32,789 bases of DNA. Source: Acutalibacteraceae bacterium. Lineage in GTDB: Bacteria; Bacillota; Clostridia; Oscillospirales; Acutalibacteraceae. The translations under genes were made by a program, and so were the position numbers. Within the stretch, counting starts at the first letter, position 1. Each line of letters begins with the position of its first letter. Below, in pieces: positions 3,665-30,800 of the stretch. The notes beneath the pieces were generated by a model. It searched no databases, was not told the origin of the DNA, and saw only the letters and a program-made list of their open reading frames with translations. The stretch covers positions 1 to 32,789 of the forward strand of contig JAZNSJ010000096.1 in NCBI GenBank assembly GCA_045591155.1. The letters run 5' to 3'.

Positions 3665-4750
3665 ATGAATACCTTAAAAAGATTTTTTGCATTAATGCTT
3701 TGTTTGGCATTGGTGGTTACCTGCTTTGCAGGCTGTCATAAAAAGGGCGAAATTGCTGTAAAAATTGGTGACGTTGAATTTACCTCTGGCTACTATGCGT
3801 GTGCACTTGTTTTTGCCGATACCGAGGCACGCGCAAAGGTAGAGGAAAACCTATCTGAAGACGAGCTTTCTGGCAACATTAAGTATTGGAACTATAAGGT
3901 AGAAGATACCGATTATACCAAATGGGTACAAAACACCGCGCTAGATACTTTAAAAGAACTTGCGGCAGTAAAAACCTTATGCGCCAAAGCAAAGGTTGAG
4001 CTTGATAGTGAAACTATATCACTCGCACAAAGCAATGCTGAGTATTTGTGGGACACATACGGCTATTCTGCTCTTATGGAGCAAAACGGCGTAGCAAAGG
4101 ACACCTTTATTACTTATATGAAGGACAGTTATCTTGCCGATGAATATTTTGCTTATTTGTATGGTAAGGGTGGCGAAAAAGAAGTTGCTGCCGACGAGAT
4201 TTCGAAACAGCTTACCGAAAACTATGTGCTTGTTAACAAGTTGGAAGTTTCTTTTAGCGAACTTGATGAAGATGAAAAAACAAGCAAGAAAAATCAGTTT
4301 GCAGGATATGAGGCATCACTTAAAGACGGAAGTAAAACCTTTGAGGAAATTTATCTTGAATATAATGATATTTCTGCCGATGAGCATAAACACGAAGAGG
4401 CAGAAGAAGGAGAGGTTCAGCCACAAGATCATCACGCGACAATCTTGGGTAGCGAGAACACCGATTATACCTCTGACCATTATGAAACAGCAAAGGCTAT
4501 GGCTTTAGGTGAAGTAAAGCTTATAACACTTGATGATGACAAGGGTCTTGTGTTACTTGTTAAAAAGGATATTGCGGCAGATCCATATTATATTGAAGAG
4601 TTTGATACTGTGCTTCGTCAAGGTATTGTAGGCGATACCTTTACCAAAGATCTTGCAAAATACGGCAAAGAATTAAATTGCGATATTAATAAATCGTCAA
4701 TAAAGCAGTTTAAGGTTAAAAATATATATTACCCCGAAACAACTTATTAA
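3665..4750 (+). CDS. secreted lipoprotein, possibly a PrsA/SurA-N-like foldase-type protein with no recognisable PPIase motif
   Basis: The start was moved to ATG 3665 (AGGAG at 3651-3655). The signal peptide MNTLKRFFALMLCLALVVTCFAGC carries a lipobox. The gene sits after mfd, where Firmicutes often encode a PrsA-like lipoprotein. I could not see a parvulin motif, so the function is uncertain. Confidence 0.6.
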   Translation: MNTLKRFFALMLCLALVVTCFAGCHKKGEIAVKIGDVEFTSGYYACALVFADTEARAKVEENLSEDELSGNIKYWNYKVEDTDYTKWVQNTALDTLKELAAVKTLCAKAKVELDSETISLAQSNAEYLWDTYGYSALMEQNGVAKDTFITYMKDSYLADEYFAYLYGKGGEKEVAADEISKQLTENYVLVNKLEVSFSELDEDEKTSKKNQFAGYEASLKDGSKTFEEIYLEYNDISADEHKHEEAEEGEVQPQDHHATILGSENTDYTSDHYETAKAMALGEVKLITLDDDKGLVLLVKKDIAADPYYIEEFDTVLRQGIVGDTFTKDLAKYGKELNCDINKSSIKQFKVKNIYYPETTY

Positions 4751-4770
4751 TAATTAACATATATAAAAGC

Positions 4771-4799
4771 AAGGTCCTCAACCAAAAGTTGAGGACCTT
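4771..4799. terminator. bidirectional intrinsic terminator between convergent genes
   Basis: Perfect 12-bp stem AAGGTCCTCAAC/GTTGAGGACCTT with loop CAAAA. It has an A-run upstream and TTTTAATT downstream, and it lies between the stops at 4750 (+) and 4807 (-). Confidence 0.8.
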
Positions 4800-4806
4800 T
4801 TAATTA

Positions 4807-5655
4807 TTACATTATTTCAAAACTGTGTATGCGGTAAAGTTCACCGCCTCGTTCTATACGCTGTATACCTTCCTTTTCGGCAAGGTTTTTATTTGTGTTT
4901 ATGTTATCGGTAATGCCGCACCAAGGTTCTATGCAAATAAAAGGAGCGTTTGGCGCTGTCCAAATAAGCATATAATCAAAACCGTTAAAATCTATCTTGA
5001 TTTTTTGGTCGGTAGTTTTGTTGTGTAAGGTGGCGCTACGAGAATTAAGATTTTTAAATATAAGGCAATCGTTTGAAAAGAGTGAGTGGTCAAGCTGTAA
5101 CTTGTTGGTGTTTTGTCCATAATTTATAGTATCAAACGAAAGCAACGGACCCTTAAGCTGAAAAGCATCTAAGATTTCTTTTTTATCAAAAATAATTTCA
5201 TAATTTTCGATACCCTCGGGGCAATTATATGCTTCGTGAGCGCCTACCGAAAAATACATATCACCATCGGTAAGATTTTTAATATTGTATTCAATGCTTA
5301 ACTTTTTACCTAACAGGGTATATGTAATTCTAAATTCATATTTAAACGGATAGTTGTCGCAGGGGCAATTTTGTGAACTTAATAAAAAGGTAGCGGTGTT
5401 TTCGCAAGCGTGTTCAACAGCCCATTGGGCGCTACGGGCAAAGCCGTGCTTTTGCAACTTGTATATTTTACCTTCGTATACAAATTCATCGTCTTTAAGT
5501 CCGCTGCAAATAGGGAATAATACGGGAGATGACCCTGTCCAAAAGGCAGGGTCACCGTACCAGATATATTCCTTACCATCATATTTTAAACTTTTAAGTT
5601 CAGCGCCGATTTCGCTAAAAGTGGCGGTTAAAAATTTGTTTGTAATGGTAACCAT
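4807..5655 (-). CDS. aldose 1-epimerase family protein (LacX/galactose-mutarotase-like)
   Basis: 282-aa ORF with an N-terminus (ATFSEIGAELKSL...EYIW...FWTGSSPVLFPICSGL...HGFAR) typical of the small LacX-like mutarotase family. It is the last gene of the minus-strand nagB operon. Confidence 0.8.
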   Translation of the reverse strand: MVTITNKFLTATFSEIGAELKSLKYDGKEYIWYGDPAFWTGSSPVLFPICSGLKDDEFVYEGKIYKLQKHGFARSAQWAVEHACENTATFLLSSQNCPCDNYPFKYEFRITYTLLGKKLSIEYNIKNLTDGDMYFSVGAHEAYNCPEGIENYEIIFDKKEILDAFQLKGPLLSFDTINYGQNTNKLQLDHSLFSNDCLIFKNLNSRSATLHNKTTDQKIKIDFNGFDYMLIWTAPNAPFICIEPWCGITDNINTNKNLAEKEGIQRIERGGELYRIHSFEIM

Positions 5656-26214: not shown

Positions 26215-28290
26215 ATGAGTGAAAAAGGTACAAATCGCGCAAAATTTTATCAATTAGCGCTGTTTCCTATGAACAACGGCGCTACAAATGTTTATTTTGT
26301 GCTTATTTTAAGTTATATTGCAACCTTTGGCAACAAGGTGTTAGGTCTTGCAATGGTGTTTGCGTCATTTATGGTTACGGGTATGCGAGTGTTCGACGCG
26401 ATAACCGACCCTATAATCGGCGCGCTTATGGACAAAACCAACGGAAAATTCGGTAAATTCAGACCGTTTATGGTTTTGGGTAACATTGTTATGGCGGTAT
26501 CGGTAATACTGCTTTATATGGTCACACCCATAATTCCAAAAGATGCAATGTGGCTTCGCTATACCGCGTTTGTTGCTCTTTATGCTGTTTGGGTTTTGGG
26601 ATATACCTTCCAGACCTCAGTTACTCGTTCGGCGCAACCCGTACTTACTAACGACCCAAAACAAAGACCGCTGTTTACCATTTTTAACACAATAGGTTCA
26701 CTTGTCGGTATGGGTGTTATGCAGTTTGTAGGACCTATTCTTGCGGGCGACGGCTTTGCGGGTGACTATAATGCAAGCTGGTTCCGCATAATGACACCTA
26801 TTGGTGTTGTAGTTTCTATTATCTTAACTATTCTTGCAATAGTCGGCATATGGGAAAAGGACTGTGATAAATATTTTGGTATTGGCGGCAAGCAGGAAAA
26901 GGTTAAGGTTTCGGAATATATTTCGATTATCAAGGCAAACAAACCACTTCAGCGACTTATGGTAGCAGGCGGCGGCTGTAAATTAGCGCTCGCAATCGCG
27001 ACAAACGTTACTGTGCTTTGTATGATTTACGGTTGTATGACACAGTTTGGATTAGGTGTAAGCTCGGGATTTTATGATAAAATCGCGATAAACAACAACA
27101 CAAAAGAGATAGTTGATTTAAAGATTGAAGAGGACACTCAGGTTTTAGGTTTGACCTTTGATTCATCCGCGATTGAACATGTGAAAAAGGGCGAAAAAAG
27201 CAAATATGAAATTGGCAAAAACGCGAGCATTACAAATATTGAAGTAACAACTGCGGGCGAATTGTTCGGTACTGAACCGACAACATCTTCTACCATAAAA
27301 GTAGTAAAGCCTGTTCAGGCGGTTGTTTTATGCTTTGACAAAGAGGGTAATGTCCAAAAAATTGAGCTTGATAACGACGGCAAACCGGTAGGATTGCAAT
27401 ACGATGCTTATGGTAAAATAGCGGGTCTTAGCGTACCTGAGTCCGATACTATGATAGGCCTTCTTGTAAATGATGACGGATTACTTATAAACGTAGAAAA
27501 CGAAGTAATTCCGCTCAGCATTACCAACGAGGGCATAGTAGGCGGTATCAATTCGGAAGATACTATTAAGCTTTCGGGTCGCAACAAGTATGACAGTCTT
27601 TATCTTATTATGATGGTTTTAGGTTATGTTTTTTCGGCGCCGTTCTTCCTGCTTACCGTTCGCACTTCGCAAAAACACGGTCAAAAGAAATCTCTTATGA
27701 CCTATGTCGCAGTAGCCCTTGCTTGTTATATAGGTGTGCTTGCTCTCCTGCTTTTGTGGAAACAGGGAAATCCCGCATTTAATTTTACATTGTTTGATAA
27801 CGGACGTTTAGCGCCAAATCTTTATACTATTTTATTTATACTTTTCTTTGGTGTGGGTTATGGTGCGTATTATTCAACCGCCGATATGCCAATACCTATG
27901 GTTGCTGACTGCGCCGATTACGAAACCTATCGTTCGGGTAAGTTTATACCGGGTATTATGGGTACGCTTTTCAGCCTTGTTGACAAGCTTGTGTCATCAC
28001 TCTCGGCAACCGTTGTAAGTATTGCGCTGTTATTTATAGGCGTTCCAAATTTAGCAACAAAAACCACTCCATACGTTGACGGTATGAACTGGGTGGTAAT
28101 AGCTTTGTTCTGCATAGTGCCTATGGTAGCGTGGGTGCTGACACTTCTCGCTATGAAAGGCTATGAGCTTGACGGTAAGCGCATTAAAACCATTCAGGCG
28201 GTAAACTCTGCAAGAAAACAAGCAATATCGGGCGGTATGACATTACAAGAGGCAATGCGCACCATAAATGATGATACAGTAAATAATTAA
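26215..28290 (+). CDS. GPH-family (glycoside-pentoside-hexuronide) cation symporter, MFS fold, with a ~185-aa hydrophilic insertion between TM7 and TM8
   Basis: It has the GPH loop-2/3 signature DAITDPIIGALMDKTNGKFGKFRPF and 12 predicted TM segments. At 691 aa it is longer than the usual ~450-500. The insert FGLGVSSGFYDK...KLSGRNKYDS is encoded at ~27045-27600. Confidence 0.85.
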   Translation: MSEKGTNRAKFYQLALFPMNNGATNVYFVLILSYIATFGNKVLGLAMVFASFMVTGMRVFDAITDPIIGALMDKTNGKFGKFRPFMVLGNIVMAVSVILLYMVTPIIPKDAMWLRYTAFVALYAVWVLGYTFQTSVTRSAQPVLTNDPKQRPLFTIFNTIGSLVGMGVMQFVGPILAGDGFAGDYNASWFRIMTPIGVVVSIILTILAIVGIWEKDCDKYFGIGGKQEKVKVSEYISIIKANKPLQRLMVAGGGCKLALAIATNVTVLCMIYGCMTQFGLGVSSGFYDKIAINNNTKEIVDLKIEEDTQVLGLTFDSSAIEHVKKGEKSKYEIGKNASITNIEVTTAGELFGTEPTTSSTIKVVKPVQAVVLCFDKEGNVQKIELDNDGKPVGLQYDAYGKIAGLSVPESDTMIGLLVNDDGLLINVENEVIPLSITNEGIVGGINSEDTIKLSGRNKYDSLYLIMMVLGYVFSAPFFLLTVRTSQKHGQKKSLMTYVAVALACYIGVLALLLLWKQGNPAFNFTLFDNGRLAPNLYTILFILFFGVGYGAYYSTADMPIPMVADCADYETYRSGKFIPGIMGTLFSLVDKLVSSLSATVVSIALLFIGVPNLATKTTPYVDGMNWVVIALFCIVPMVAWVLTLLAMKGYELDGKRIKTIQAVNSARKQAISGGMTLQEAMRTINDDTVNN

Positions 28291-28293
28291 ATT

Positions 28294-28340
28294 AAGAAGT
28301 CGGAGTTTGATAAAAACTGCGACTTCTTGTAATGTTTTAA
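28294..28340 (+). terminator. probable (weak) terminator after the symporter gene
   Basis: AAGAAGTCG (28294-28302) pairs with CGACTTCTT (28320-28328), with an inner AGTTT/AAACT extension. The T-tract is interrupted (GTAATGTTTT). Confidence 0.45.
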
Positions 28341-28358
28341 CAAGTTTTGTCGAAGGTC

Positions 28359-28387
28359 TTGACGGTAAAATTTATTTATGTTATCAT
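28359..28387 (+). promoter_or_regulatory. sigma-A promoter (extended -10) driving the structured leader and micro-ORF
   Basis: TTGACG (28359-28364), 17-nt spacer ending in TGT, TATCAT (28382-28387). Confidence 0.65.
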
Positions 28388-28392
28388 AATCT

Positions 28393-28556
28393 TGCGACAC
28401 GAATTTCATATTGCAATTCATAGGAGAGAAGTTTTTACTTCGGTAAAAACACATTCTCTTAATTTGACTATCTCTTGTGGATTGCAAATTCGTGTCGCAG
28501 CGGTTGAGCTATGTGTTTTTCAGTGCGTAGCTTCGGCTGCGCACTTTTTTATTTTT
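28393..28556 (+). ncRNA. structured ~165-nt leader/sRNA of unknown class ending in an intrinsic terminator (candidate riboswitch or attenuator)
   Basis: A 14-bp closing helix forms between TGCGACACGAATTT (28393-28406) and AAATTCGTGTCGCA (28486-28499), extended by GCAAT/ATTGC. There is an internal 8-bp UUCG hairpin, GTTTTTAC-TTCG-GTAAAAAC (28431-28450). AGGAGAGAA can pair with either TTCTCTT (28454-28460) or TCTCTT (28471-28476). The terminator is listed separately. Confidence 0.6.
28522..28556 (+). terminator. intrinsic terminator of the leader RNA
   Basis: GTGCGTAGC-TTCG-GCTGCGCAC (9 bp including one G-U, UUCG loop) followed by TTTTTTATTTTTT. It lies ~55 nt upstream of the micro-ORF RBS. 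Confidence 0.85.
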
Positions 28557-28623
28557 TACAATGGCCGTTGTAACAAATATTGTCGAACCAGACAAATTAT
28601 ATTGTTATAAAGGAGGACTAGTT

Positions 28624-28752
28624 ATGCCTGATTACAAGCAGCTTTATTTAACATTGCTTGACGGTGTCGAAAAAGCAATAAATTTGTTGATAGATACACA
28701 AAGAGCGTGTGAAGATATTTATATTGATACCGACGAAATAAAAGAAGATTAG
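28624..28752 (+). CDS. 42-aa acidic micro-protein (hypothetical)
   Basis: A strong RBS (AGGAGG at 28611-28616) lies 7 nt before ATG 28624. The product is MPDYKQLYLTLLDGVEKAINLLIDTQRACEDIYIDTDEIKED, which looks helical. It lies downstream of the structured leader and terminator. The track ORF from 28561 would start inside the terminator tail and has no RBS. Confidence 0.55.
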   Translation: MPDYKQLYLTLLDGVEKAINLLIDTQRACEDIYIDTDEIKED

Positions 28753-29163
28753 TATTTACAAAACCATCGCAAATTAGCGTGTTATCCTTAACGGAGAATT
28801 TAAAATTGTTTAGATTTTTGTTAAGAACCAGCATCGCATTTGTAAGTACAAATGCAGTTGGGCAGTAGCCCAAAACCCACTAACAATAGAAAAGAGAAGA
28901 TTCGTTTTTTTGCATCGAGTCTTCTCTTTCTTTTTGTCTGTTAAGTGATATGCTGACTACCGTCAGCGTGATATTTTCGCTTTGCGAAAGTGATATTAAA
29001 CCCGATGGGTTTAGTGATATTCTATTTGCTCCTAAACTTGCGAAGTAAATATCACTCGGCTGAAAGCCGAATATTACTGCGTAGCAATATAACTCGCCGC
29101 AAGGCGAATAGAGTTGGCGCAATATCCGTTAAGGATGTCAAGCCATTCAGTCGGGTGCTTTTT
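28750..29163 (+). ncRNA. large hairpin-rich structured element, copy L (candidate novel ncRNA; sense inferred as +)
   Basis: It is homologous in order to the reverse complement of 30436-30800. A 12-bp closing helix forms between ATCCTTAACGGA (28784-28795) and TCCGTTAAGGAT (29125-29136). Hairpins: GCATTTG-N6-CAAATGC (28836-28855), GGGC-AGTA-GCCC (28860-28871), and a 14-bp stem 28891-28904/28916-28929 with one U-G pair. Four GTGATAT 7-mers, each followed by a small hairpin, sit at 28945, 28968, 28990 and 29014. They are followed by ATATCAC (29049), ATATTAC (29071) and ATATAAC (29087). A GCAA tetraloop hairpin lies at 29094-29107. The 3' tail is GTCGGGTGCTTTTT (29150-29163). Confidence 0.6.
28773..28795 (+). 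repeat. 23-bp perfect direct repeat, copy 1 (ATTAGCGTGTTATCCTTAACGGA)
   Basis: Identical to 30452-30474. It forms the outer terminus of element L. Confidence 0.9.
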
Positions 29164-29170
29164 GTTTGCC

Positions 29171-29199
29171 TTGACACGCGTTTGCATTGTGAGTATAAT
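29171..29199 (+). promoter_or_regulatory. consensus sigma-A promoter of the orphan membrane-protein gene
   Basis: TTGACA (29171-29176), 17-nt spacer, TATAAT (29194-29199). It starts 8 nt after the conserved 3' tail of element L. Confidence 0.75.
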
Positions 29200-29231: not shown

Positions 29232-30410
29232 ATGTCTTTAAAGGAGTTACAGGAAAAAGTATACGGCTTTGAATCCGCAAAACGATTGCACAAAGCGACC
29301 GAAGGGTTTGCGCGCTTTTTTGCGTCACTTTTTGTATTGGTAGGCACGTTATTGGCGGCTTACGGTGTGATTGTCACGCAGGTGTATGAGCCTAAACAAG
29401 CGGCACAGGTGGATGTGTGGGTGTTGTCGGATGCGTGGGAAAAGATTTTCTCGCATTTTGAAACTTCTGAGATGCCTATTTGGGCAGTAGTGCTCATTAT
29501 CGGCTTTGGCTCGGCTTTTGTAGCGGCACTTGTCACCCTTTTGTTTTTCTTTATCGCAAAAGCGTTGTGCGGTAAAAAGAAACTGAAAGAAACGGAAGAA
29601 ACGGTCGAAAATGCCCGTCTTTTGCAAGAACGGATGGGTGGGGACACGTACGACTGGCAAGAGCAACAAGAAAAAATCGGCAAACAATTAAAGAGGTTTG
29701 TTGTCTTTTTCATTATATTCTTTTCGATCTTTACAATGATGCAAACACAAGTGGTGATACCGGACAAAGTCTATTTGACCGGCTTTTTATATGCAGTGTT
29801 GTCCTTAATAGCTTTTTACATTTTCAGAGCCGCCTTTATTTTATCTGTCAAGGTTTGTTGGAAGAAAAACGTCAAGTTAGAAAACGAACTTAAACAGCAA
29901 CTGGAAACCACTATAAAATATTTAGAGAGAAAAGGGAAAGAAGAGGCAGAAAAACAAAAAGCGGAACAATTAGAGAAAGAAAAGAAAGAAAATCTGGCAC
30001 GCGCAAACGCTATGTACGAGGCGTTTGAGCAAGAACAGTCCAAAGATATGCATCAGTTGTTTCAAATTGCTAAATTGGGTCATCACGATGCGACTTTGTC
30101 GTACATTGAATGGTGTCTGCCCAAAACGGTGTCCCCTGAGTTAACAAGAGATGAACAAAAGAGATTTCTCAAAAGGATGTATGATGCGCTCGTTATGGTG
30201 GGGAAATATGACCAACATAGCAACATTACCAAGTTTTTCTATTACTCCACCTTGATGGGACTTGGTAAGATCAACAATAAGAAGATCGCACAAGAGGCAT
30301 TGGATGAATTGCGGTTTATTAAGCGATGCGGCGACTTGTCCGAAGAACATACCGAGGTTTGCACAGATTTGATCGAAGCATTGGTAAGTTTTATTAACAA
30401 GTTAAGTTAA
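29232..30410 (+). CDS. hypothetical membrane protein: 4 TM segments, Lys/Glu-rich coiled coil, C-terminal helical (possibly Sel1/TPR-like) domain
   Basis: A consensus promoter lies 33 nt upstream and the RBS AAGGAGGGG is at 29219-29227; 392 aa. The TM segments are FFASLFVLVGTLLAAYGVIV, IWAVVLIIGFGSAFVAALVTLLFFFI, FVVFFIIFFSIFTMM and FLYAVLSLIAFYIFRAAFIL. The coiled coil is KGKEEAEKQKAEQLEKEKKENLARANAMYEAFEQEQ. I recognise no family. Confidence 0.75.
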   Translation: MSLKELQEKVYGFESAKRLHKATEGFARFFASLFVLVGTLLAAYGVIVTQVYEPKQAAQVDVWVLSDAWEKIFSHFETSEMPIWAVVLIIGFGSAFVAALVTLLFFFIAKALCGKKKLKETEETVENARLLQERMGGDTYDWQEQQEKIGKQLKRFVVFFIIFFSIFTMMQTQVVIPDKVYLTGFLYAVLSLIAFYIFRAAFILSVKVCWKKNVKLENELKQQLETTIKYLERKGKEEAEKQKAEQLEKEKKENLARANAMYEAFEQEQSKDMHQLFQIAKLGHHDATLSYIEWCLPKTVSPELTRDEQKRFLKRMYDALVMVGKYDQHSNITKFFYYSTLMGLGKINNKKIAQEALDELRFIKRCGDLSEEHTEVCTDLIEALVSFINKLS

Positions 30411-30435: not shown

Positions 30436-30800
30436 AAAAATCACCCGACACATTAGCGTGTTATCCTTAACGGATAACACGCAACGATATAAATCCCTTG
30501 CGGGATTTGCGATATGCCCTCTTGGGCGTGAAGGGATTTATATCATATCGCATTGGCGTAAAGCGACAATATATCGCACGAGCAAAGCAAGTATATCGCG
30601 TTTGCTTACAAACATATCGCCTAACAAAAAAGAGAGAACATTTCGGCTATAAACCGATTTGTTCTCTCTTTCTGTTTGTAAATATGGGCTTGGGCTTAGC
30701 CCGTTCTGCGTTTGGACATACAAACGCGATGCCGGTTCTTAACAATTCAAATTCTCCGCTAAGGACATCACACATTTGCGATGGTTTTTGTTTTATACTA
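30436..30800 (-). ncRNA. large hairpin-rich structured element, copy R (inverted, diverged homolog of copy L; sense inferred as -)
   Basis: Read on the minus strand it has the same order as L. It starts with a TAGTAT box (30800-30795) and AAAACCATCGCAAAT (rc of 30774-30788). The closing helix is GTCCTTAGCGGA (rc of 30755-30766) with rc of 30463-30474, giving 10 Watson-Crick and 2 G-U pairs. Hairpins: GCGTTTG-N6-CAAACGC, GGGC-TAA-GCCC, and the AAAGAGAGAACA...TGTTCTCTCTTT stem. Four GCGATAT 7-mers with hairpins are the rc of ATATCGC at 30614, 30593, 30571 and 30545. They are followed by ATATCGC and ATATCGT (rc of 30509 and 30484), a GCAA tetraloop hairpin (rc of 30491-30508), and the tail GTCGGGTGATTTTT (rc of 30436-30449). 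Confidence 0.6.
30452..30474 (+). repeat. 23-bp perfect direct repeat, copy 2 (ATTAGCGTGTTATCCTTAACGGA)
   Basis: Identical to 28773-28795. Here it is part of an 11-bp perfect local hairpin, GCGTGTTATCC-TTAAC-GGATAACACGC (30456-30482). Confidence 0.9.

Follow-up and report, generated by a model that had tools for sequence, protein, structure and literature searches.

Heptamer-and-hairpin arrays of an Acutalibacteraceae contig are variants of the Gut-1 motif, half of a mirror-symmetric dispersed repeat linked to PF05635 genes

Introduction

What does selection preserve in a non-coding array whose heptamers stay constant although the intervening hairpins share neither sequence nor length? The question is raised by a stretch of 32,789 nucleotides from an Acutalibacteraceae bacterium (contig JAZNSJ010000096.1 of GenBank assembly GCA_045591155.1), here called the window, which carries two such arrays, L and R, built on the heptamers GTGATAT and GCGATAT respectively. 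An earlier note, made from the sequence of the window, offered two readings: either the 5' heptamers of an RNA pair with its 3' heptamers, giving nested 7-bp helices separated by side hairpins, or the arrays record the concerted evolution of an iterated protein-binding site. The data presented below disfavour the former and are better fitted by the latter. The window array is real and is a variant of the known but uncharacterised Gut-1 motif (RF01706); the Rfam Gut-1 motif is half of a mirror-symmetric, type-diversified and dispersed repeat, and Gut-1 arrays are physically linked to genes of the PF05635 four-helix-bundle family. Gut-1 was reported only from human-gut metagenomes, as a free-standing small RNA of unknown function, and was classed as RNA in Rfam owing to covariation in its hairpins (Weinberg et al. 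2010, PMC2864571). The 2010 description makes no mention of a mirror symmetry, of different heptamer types, of a location in terminators or of a link to PF05635, and our search for literature on Gut-1 and on the heptamers found nothing past that paper.

Results

The window arrays are two-armed relatives of Gut-1

No Rfam family reached its gathering threshold in the window. In a permissive scan Gut-1, with a threshold of 50 bits, gave a match of 49.9 bits at 28943-29025 on the + strand, a second of 46.9 bits at 29044-29116 on the minus strand, and a third of 27.4 bits at 30482-30553. As the two matches in array L lie on opposite strands, this array consists of two Gut-1-like halves in mirror orientation. 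The window array contains the three consecutive hairpins with GUGAWAU heptamers between them by which Gut-1 is recognised. The Rfam model comprises one arm only and has the consensus heptamer GUGAAAU, whereas the window copies fall just under its threshold, use GTGATAT or GCGATAT, and are embedded in a larger repeat, E, with additional conserved domains. The flanks of the original Gut-1 alignment contain this two-armed layout too, including the enclosing helix and a second arm made of AUAUCAC units; there, a terminator-like hairpin is followed by UAUAUUCGCC-loop-GGCGA, by three G[UC]GAUAU units and the centre, and then by GGCGAAUAUA and four AUAUCAC units. A metagenome scan for the full layout returned 120 loci, of which those scored gave 51-67 bits for Gut-1; we refer to these arrays of the same architecture, which exceed the threshold in the orientation of the Rfam model, as W-type. 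At one locus (L392) an E-type terminal hairpin is joined to a perfect Gut-1 array, and this joint structure ties the window arrays to the Gut-1 family.

The heptamers of L lie where the earlier note had placed them, with GTGATAT at 28945, 28968, 28990 and 29014 of the + strand, its complement at 29049, and the hairpin-separated variants ATATTAC (29071) and ATATAAC (29087) downstream. On the minus strand, R has GCGATAT at 30545, 30571, 30593 and 30614, and the complements ATATCGC (30509-30515) and ATATCGT (30484-30490) were likewise found. In total, GTGATAT occurs 17 times in the window, compared with 4.1 +/- 2.3 times in shuffled sequence (none of 100 shuffles reached 17), and five of these copies are packed into 111 nt. 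As had been described, the spacers of L are perfect hairpins; they read GCTGAC-TACC-GTCAGC, TTTCGC-TTT-GCGAAA and TAAACCC-GAT-GGGTTTA, and abut the heptamers on each side with no spare nucleotides; the hairpins of its inner half are TCGGC-TGAAA-GCCGA, TGC-GTA-GCA and TCGCC-GCAA-GGCGA. We agree that the region is non-coding. In alignment, L and R are inverted copies of one element of approximately 370 nt with a column identity of 77%, and the open reading frame (ORF) ORF392 lies between them. Both strands fold far better than shuffled sequence (z = -7.6 to -10.6), which is expected for palindromic DNA and is uninformative on the functional strand.

The hairpins, but not the nested heptamer helices, are under selection

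Structural tests were carried out on 19 distinct arrays of the GTGATAT type (type A). In these, the local hairpins were paired in 97.9% of cells and contained 10 pairs with both sides changed, values that none of 500 shuffles equalled; the covariation score likewise exceeded all 500 shuffles, and slid controls gave 25-43% pairing. The small hairpins are thus selected structures, as the earlier note had proposed. The nested 7-bp heptamer helices that it had also proposed were, in contrast, paired in 84.6% of cells without a single pair changed on both sides, and these values were identical to those of shuffles. The four outer GTGATAT copies were almost invariant across arrays, and the inner heptamers varied at two central positions (ATATCAC, ATAACAC, ATATTAC, ATATAAC, ATAGAAC and others) with nothing to compensate. 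The claim that the imperfect copies pair through G-U holds for ATATTAC in L and ATATCGT in R, but not for ATATAAC, which leaves a G.A mismatch against GTGATAT. The heptamer change is indeed concerted across the 5' and 3' copies; however, any site is by definition complementary to its own inverted copy, and such apparent covariation therefore does not discriminate between the readings.

A different helix, P0 (CTATTCGCC with GGCGAATAG), was paired in 99.4% of cells in the 19 copies, the only changes being from C to U (U.G). In other heptamer types its arms occupy the same place and differ in sequence (TATATTCGCC/GGCGAATATA, GATATAAATTCC/GGAATTTATATC, TAGGATTGCC/GGCAATCCTA and TATGATCGCC/GGCGATCATA), as does the perfect 14-bp helix of R, which had been noted as a competing fold, which an inverted-repeat search confirmed, and of which homologous helices are present in L029, L010 and L173. 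P0 covaries between heptamer types, and P0 and the nested heptamer pairing are mutually exclusive; in L, P0 also competes with a local hairpin at 29094-29107. With RNA parameters the nested pairing adds 5-10 kcal/mol over the hairpins alone, the unconstrained optimum being extended hairpins together with P0, and with DNA parameters the nested pairing is unfavourable. An invertible switch mediated by P0 was also considered, and every copy seen was in one orientation.

Loop polarity is mirrored between the two arms

On the ATATCNC strand, 59 of 134 unique hairpins had loops of the form G..A and 4 had T..C. The loop was closed by a C-G pair in 107 of the 134, the triloops GAA, GCA, GTA and AAA were common, and some loops were GNRA or UUCG. 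Triloops of the form C-GNA-G are typical of DNA mini-hairpins of very high stability. In an independent set of Gut-1 arrays, read on the top strand, the inner half had T..C loops in 28 cases and G..A in 2, and the outer half G..A in 28 and T..C in 3. Each arm is therefore in its proper sense on the opposite strand from the other, and one arm is in the complementary sense in any single transcript. Such mirroring is as in a twofold-symmetric DNA element, or in a module that functions in either orientation, and is not predicted by the fold of a one-stranded RNA.

Arrays differ in heptamer type and often have a single arm

Within any one array the heptamers agree; between arrays at least eight types occur, each accompanied by its own complement, and arrays of different type are present in the same genomes. 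Besides GTGATAT these include GCGATAT, TCGATAT, ATGATAT, GTTATGA and GAGATAT, and further ACGATAT with AACATCG, contiguous TNTTCAC heptads and the GTGAAAT of the Rfam consensus. Mixed arrays, such as GCGAUAU followed by two GUGAUAU, also occur. Several types coexist in the window (L versus R) and within 8 kb in L018, and the GCGATAT type of R was found in L018, L010 and L173. The 8-kb contig L018 (1-240 and 5856-6260) holds arrays of the GTTATGA, GTGATAT and GCGATAT types, and a truncated GTGATAT-type copy of E is fused there directly to a GCGATAT array.

Heptamer spacing is 16-26 nt, increasing to 53 nt where a hairpin is enlarged, and falls to zero if the hairpins fold; this variability argues against binding to phased duplex DNA and for a state with the hairpins folded out. 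Many arrays (those in L283, L284, L287, L374, L379 and L090, and the first of L246) are one-armed, with direct units only and the complementary half missing, and the complementary arm is therefore dispensable. In RNA, the three 3'-terminal bases of one GUGAUAU can pair with the three 5'-terminal bases of the following copy (UAU/GUG, with two G.U), which would lengthen every type-A hairpin by 3 bp with a single A between; this fails for GCGAUAU and UCGAUAU. A very long array in L375 (1-600), on both strands beside a PF05635 gene, has more than 12 units of GTGATAT, GTGTTAT and GTTATAT with three alternating hairpins. In L412 (~975-1015) four tandem copies of TGCTGAGCA(T), uninterrupted by heptamers, stand in place of one Gut-1 hairpin.

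Scans of viral sequences for GTGATAT or GCGATAT in three spaced copies mainly retrieved tandem repeats in coding sequence of giant viruses, the only real arrays being those of L053, L090, L173 and L246. On two related phage contigs, two and three arrays respectively lie in intergenic gaps of the terminase-portal-head operon, with no PF05635 gene alongside, and the three on one contig are near-identical. The phage array of L173 (4310-4560) has an 18-bp direct repeat on either side (CCCGGCTAAGCGAGCCGC), which takes in the stop codon of the gene upstream; this could be an insertion or recombination scar.

Gut-1 arrays are physically linked to PF05635 genes

Gut-1 arrays often lie behind a tRNA or tmRNA gene and its terminator, and approximately 54 nt downstream of many arrays is the start of a gene for a 118-aa protein that belongs to PF05635 (23S_rRNA_IVP; E = 3e-29) and TIGR02436 (four helix bundle protein). 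The nearest solved structure, 2RLD, has five chains. The PF05635 relative Xcc0516 is reported to be a pentamer, and the same work describes four-helix bundles and a GxxRxxxSxxxNxxE motif (PMC3936711); PF05635 proteins are also reported to be related to Avd, a protein of diversity-generating retroelements (DGR; PMC10053308). Searched with a local profile, 0.62 Mb of array loci yielded 31 PF05635 ORFs, and 2.1 Mb of unrelated viral loci yielded none; 26 of these ORFs are directly downstream of an array on the same strand. Many of these loci are the same locus taken from different samples, and the distinct genomic contexts number about a dozen. In a reciprocal test, six homologues picked by protein similarity alone represented four distinct loci, with an array upstream at all four. 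Two more PF05635 ORFs lie beside an ACGATAT-type array in L278 and L280, where array and gene together form an insertion of approximately 620 bp relative to L279.

Arrays can also surround the gene. At the TrmO locus they flank a PF05635 gene on both sides, and unit number and order vary among strains; in the examples seen here (L403-L409 and L411) the upstream gap measures 218-535 nt and holds a few hairpin units reshuffled in the manner of a minisatellite. Divergent PF05635 genes (L310 and L331) are bordered by other heptamer types. In L336 the gene is placed between long inverted repeats of contiguous heptads, a mirror arrangement with no hairpins between the heptads, and this cassette lies inside the duplicated terminators of two convergent tRNA genes.

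The PF05635 protein matched no defence or toxin model in PADLOC, and a HEPN/RNase identity considered for the family was dropped, the family also being absent from a HEPN survey. In the literature on PF05635 and HEPN we found no paper linking PF05635 to such repeats. To our knowledge, PF05635/TIGR02436 is a very large family of which Avd, a DGR accessory protein, is the sole characterised member.

The array is the core of a dispersed repeat located at terminators

E is a non-coding repeat of which the array forms the core. In an alignment of 22 copies it begins with an end repeat and a conserved 5' domain, which are followed by a terminator-like hairpin, the two-armed array and, last, a 3' end repeat or terminal hairpin. 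A metagenome search with a 20-nt pattern of the conserved 5' domain yielded 34 true loci, from Oscillospiraceae, Acutalibacteraceae, Ruminococcus and other Clostridia metagenome-assembled genomes (MAGs) of animal guts. Several MAGs have multiple copies, numerous matches lie at contig ends, and copies in different MAGs are up to 99.4% identical with unrelated flanks. The ends of E, TTAAGTGTGAT... and ...ATCACGCATAA, are mutually inverted, and E shares with miniature inverted-repeat transposable elements these terminal inverted repeats, the lack of coding capacity and the many near-identical copies.

Approximately 10 of 16 complete copies lie exactly between the arms of a locus-specific stem of 10-19 bp with an A-run before and a T-run after it. 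In these copies E is thus located in the loop of a bidirectional-terminator-like hairpin, an insert in a stable hairpin with inverted repeats at its borders, and its flanks are inverted repeats (the terminator arms), not direct repeats. Its orientation relative to the upstream gene is 18 versus 17. Two truncated copies (L003 and L016) were examined for a hidden transposase and none was found. Near one copy of E, L030 has a long tandem repeat with a period of 30 nt (4474-5117) that is probably coding.

Features of the window

The features of the window are collected in Table 1. The terminator arms are arranged as a-L-y ... y'-R-a', the enclosing terminator surrounding the entire L-ORF392-R block. 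ORF392 has a promoter of perfect sigma-70 consensus directly past the L element (TTGACA, 17 nt, TATAAT; 12 of 12 positions), a layout kept at the loci of its orthologues. As these orthologues sit between plain terminators without E, ORF392 is a normal gene with one copy of E in each of its terminators, and its candidacy as E's own gene was rejected on these grounds. In a syntenic relative (L277, ~80% identity) the position of the enclosing terminator, past a homologous small ORF, is taken by a plain terminator.

Table 1. Positions of the arrays, repeat copies, terminators and ORF392 in the window.
Feature	Positions	Strand	Evidence or remark
Outer half-array of L, 4 x GTGATAT with three perfect hairpins	28945..29020	+	Gut-1-like match; heptamers almost invariant, hairpins covary (19 copies)
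Inner half-array of L: ATATCAC, ATATTAC, ATATAAC, ATAGAGT with hairpins	29049..29114	+	Two central heptamer positions variable among copies
Helix P0 of L, 29022-29030 (CTATTTGCT) with 29103-29111 (GGCGAATAG)	29022..29111	+	Encloses inner half-array
Outer half-array of R, 4 x GCGATAT and intervening hairpins	30545..30620	-	
Helix P0 of R, 14 bp perfect, 30486-30499 with 30531-30544	30486..30544	-	Encloses short inner half (ATATCGC 30509-30515)
E copy L, GTGATAT type (limits approximate)	28777..29143	+	34 related loci; 22-copy alignment; ends 28777-28795 pair with 29125-29143
Conserved terminator-like hairpin of E copy L, directly before array	28883..28937	+	Inverted repeat; kept in nearly all copies of E
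E copy R, GCGATAT type, inverted relative to L (limits approximate)	30456..30771	-	Alignment with L; inverted repeats
Terminator-like hairpin of R	30629..30671	-	Inverted repeat
5' arm of enclosing host terminator (AAAACCATCGCAAAT)	28760..28774	+	Perfect 15-nt inverted repeat with 30774-30788
3' arm of enclosing host terminator (ATTTGCGATGGTTTT)	30774..30788	+	Perfect inverted repeat
Terminator 3' arm and T-run (GTCGGGTGCTTTTT), just 5' of ORF392 promoter	29150..29163	+	Partner arm 30436-30449, past ORF392
ORF392, ordinary host gene	29232..30410	+	Own promoter 29171-29199

ORF392 matched no Pfam or PADLOC family and has only ~10 homologues among 5.8 billion proteins. Visual inspection of its sequence shows hydrophobic segments, a K/E-rich stretch and a C-terminus resembling helical repeats. 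Upstream of the block, a conserved and structured non-coding stretch (28335-28560) contains inverted repeats (28393-28406/28486-28499 and 28411-28427/28471-28487), ends in a terminator (28522-28545) and precedes a conserved 63-aa ORF (28561-28752). It is ~75-80% identical in relatives (L277 3928-4150; L278/L279), and could be a leader or a small RNA. The MFS_2 transporter ORF has 691 aa in the window (26215-28290) and 516 aa in the syntenic L277 (2133-3683), and an acetyltransferase gene (Mac/Hexapep) that is located before the MatE gene in relatives is missing from the window.

Discussion

The reading that we favour, to which we give almost an even chance, is that the heptamers are predicted recognition sites whose hairpin spacers fold away, in repeats that together with a partner protein resemble the repetitive extragenic palindromic (REP) sequences and their REP-associated tyrosine transposases (RAYT). 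The spacer mini-hairpins would fold when the DNA or its transcript is single-stranded, bringing spaced heptamers next to each other, and the adjacent heptamers would then offer several sites at once to an oligomeric protein. The most likely candidate for this reader would be the PF05635 four-helix-bundle (Avd-like) protein, relatives of which are pentameric and genes of which lie beside or between arrays. The T-to-C and A-to-G difference between L and R would reflect two repeat lineages, or specificity types, rather than base-pair covariation, and E would be a gene-less derivative served in trans. All four components of this account (recognition sites, their joining by hairpin folding, the PF05635 oligomer as reader, and E as a gene-less client) are ones that we infer.

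Several observations weigh against this account. A PF05635 gene was found at only 25 of the 87 arrays with enough downstream sequence, and the local profile found none across 235 kb of E loci, nor in the window, so that any protein must act in trans on these copies. We know of no sequence-specific activity of PF05635. The heptamer resembles an extended -10 element (TGnTAT), and its overlap with PF05635 promoters could therefore be trivial. The phage arrays, being inside late operons, are certainly transcribed. Hairpin-stem wobbles are balanced between strands (3 G.T versus 5 A.C) and assign none, and the changes in P0 are all U.G on one strand. Neither direct target duplication nor a transposase was seen at E, and the exact empty site of the window insertion (AAACCATCGCAAAT..ATTTGCGATGGTTT) was not found in metagenomes.

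Two alternatives place the function in RNA. That a single RNA folds each array into stacked, perfect four-way junctions would account for the absence of spare nucleotides between heptamers and hairpins on either arm, for the complementarity of 5' and 3' heptamers in every type, and for the stabilisation calculated with RNA parameters; in addition, the outermost pair of helix 1 switches between G.U plus U.G and G-C plus U-A on the + sense, and several inner variants would make tandem G.A pairs. We nevertheless consider it decidedly unlikely. The heptamer helices pair no better than shuffles and show no compensatory change, the inner heptamers drift while the outer ones are fixed, the better-conserved P0 excludes the nested pairing, the minimum-energy fold prefers P0 and extended hairpins, and DNA parameters disfavour the nested helices; one-armed arrays are common, orientation is inconsistent relative to genes, promoters and terminators, and the mirrored loops are not what a function of one strand predicts. 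An RNA in which the heptamer linkers, held between hairpins, sequester an RNA-binding protein in the manner of a sponge or antitoxin, the protein possibly being the downstream PF05635 product and the phage copies mimics, is somewhat better placed, although we still judge it improbable. It is consistent with arrays directly upstream of a small protein gene on its strand, with the two or three arrays per phage in transcribed gaps of late operons, with GNRA and UUCG loops, with P0 changes that are all wobble-compatible on one strand, and with the classing of Gut-1 as RNA. However, several loci have a strong terminator before the array and a promoter after it with no evident transcription of the gap, E is oriented randomly to its neighbours, the mirrored loops put one arm in the wrong sense of any transcript, and PF05635 has neither a match among the defence and toxin models of PADLOC nor a confirmed HEPN link. 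The context of the predicted RNA likewise argues against Gut-1 as a fixed transcription unit.

The other two alternatives concern DNA. The array could be a decaying or selfish tandem repeat without a sequence-specific reader, with heptamer identity maintained by slippage or gene conversion, and the varying number and order of units between strains, the reshuffled hairpin units and the hairpin expanded alone in L412 speak for it. It is very unlikely given that heptamers remain constant between hairpins that are wholly different, that loop sequence and closing pair are constrained with polarity kept in both arms, and that the same architecture recurs in many taxa and with at least eight heptamer types. 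Least probable of all, in our view, is that the heptamers are iterons or operators in double-stranded DNA, bound by a regulator or by a replication or partition protein. Direct and inverted copies of a short site, a spacing near 22 bp in L, the overlap of a heptamer-like sequence with the -10 region of PF05635 promoters and a concerted site change typical of iteron/Rep pairs would suit this reading, but across arrays the spacing (16-26 bp, and 53 bp in some copies) has no helical phasing, and hairpin potential, needless for duplex binding, is kept by compensatory change. In addition, neither a rep or par gene nor an AT-rich region for unwinding nor DnaA boxes occur nearby, and the context is chromosomal.

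Recognition of heptamers gathered by folded hairpins may be extended to a broader proposal, which we put forward as a doubtful but worthwhile conjecture. Gut-1 arrays and PF05635 (Avd-like) genes would form a previously unrecognised class of protein-plus-repeat elements, in which an oligomer reads hairpin-gathered heptamers, and in which cassettes and gene-less E elements spread into or next to terminators, tRNA 3' ends and, by extension, 23S rRNA helices. If true, this would also account for the origin of ORF-bearing rRNA intervening sequences. The link to PF05635 and the insertion in terminators did not appear in the literature searched. Gut-1 has been in Rfam since 2010 lacking a function, and both it and PF05635 gain a concrete partner. 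E-type elements break assemblies and, inside terminators, may alter termination or transcript stability of neighbouring genes.

Like plasmid iterons with inverted half-sites, the arrays combine direct repeats with inverted copies of a short site, and in plasmid iterons site and protein change in concert between lineages; unlike iterons, they lack phasing of ~11/22 bp, have no replication gene nearby and have hairpin spacers under selection. Type III toxin-antitoxin systems (ToxI/ToxN) and CsrB-type sponges share the repeat array directly upstream of a small protein gene, and short single-stranded motifs displayed between hairpins, as is predicted here. Their resemblance ends with units that share 7 nt only, a downstream protein without a PADLOC match, and arrays in both orientations, often behind terminators. 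Resemblances that we considered, to the heptads of the Omega protein (WATCACW), the phiX174/pC194 nick sites (TG/ATAT) and extended -10 elements, and to Chi sites, integron attC core sites and Tn7 end repeats, explain neither the heptamer variety nor the hairpin spacers. ORF-bearing 23S rRNA intervening sequences encode an S23p/IVP protein, PF05635, according to Ralph & McClelland (1993) as cited in PMC3936711. The elements described here share with them the protein family and the placement of an insert, bordered by inverted repeats, within a stable hairpin: E lies between terminator arms, and the L336 cassette between duplicated terminators and long inverted repeats. The differences are that the target here is the terminator after a tRNA or protein gene rather than an rRNA helix, and that E has no ORF.

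REP sequences and the bacterial interspersed mosaic elements that they form are, with RAYT (as REPtrons), short hairpin repeats dispersed between genes and at 3' ends, with several types per genome, arrays of alternating orientation and a partner gene flanked by its own repeat. E and Gut-1 arrays are likewise dispersed, multicopy, hairpin-forming and intergenic, are type-specific, and have a partner gene flanked by the same repeats. In REPs it is the hairpin sequence that is conserved, whereas here conservation is confined to the 7-nt linker, the hairpins being free to vary; the gene that the arrays flank encodes a four-helix-bundle protein (PF05635/TIGR02436) of no known nuclease activity, and no Y1 HUH transposase (RAYT) was seen. 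REP/RAYT is the closest working analogy for these elements, membership failing because the partner gene is not a transposase.

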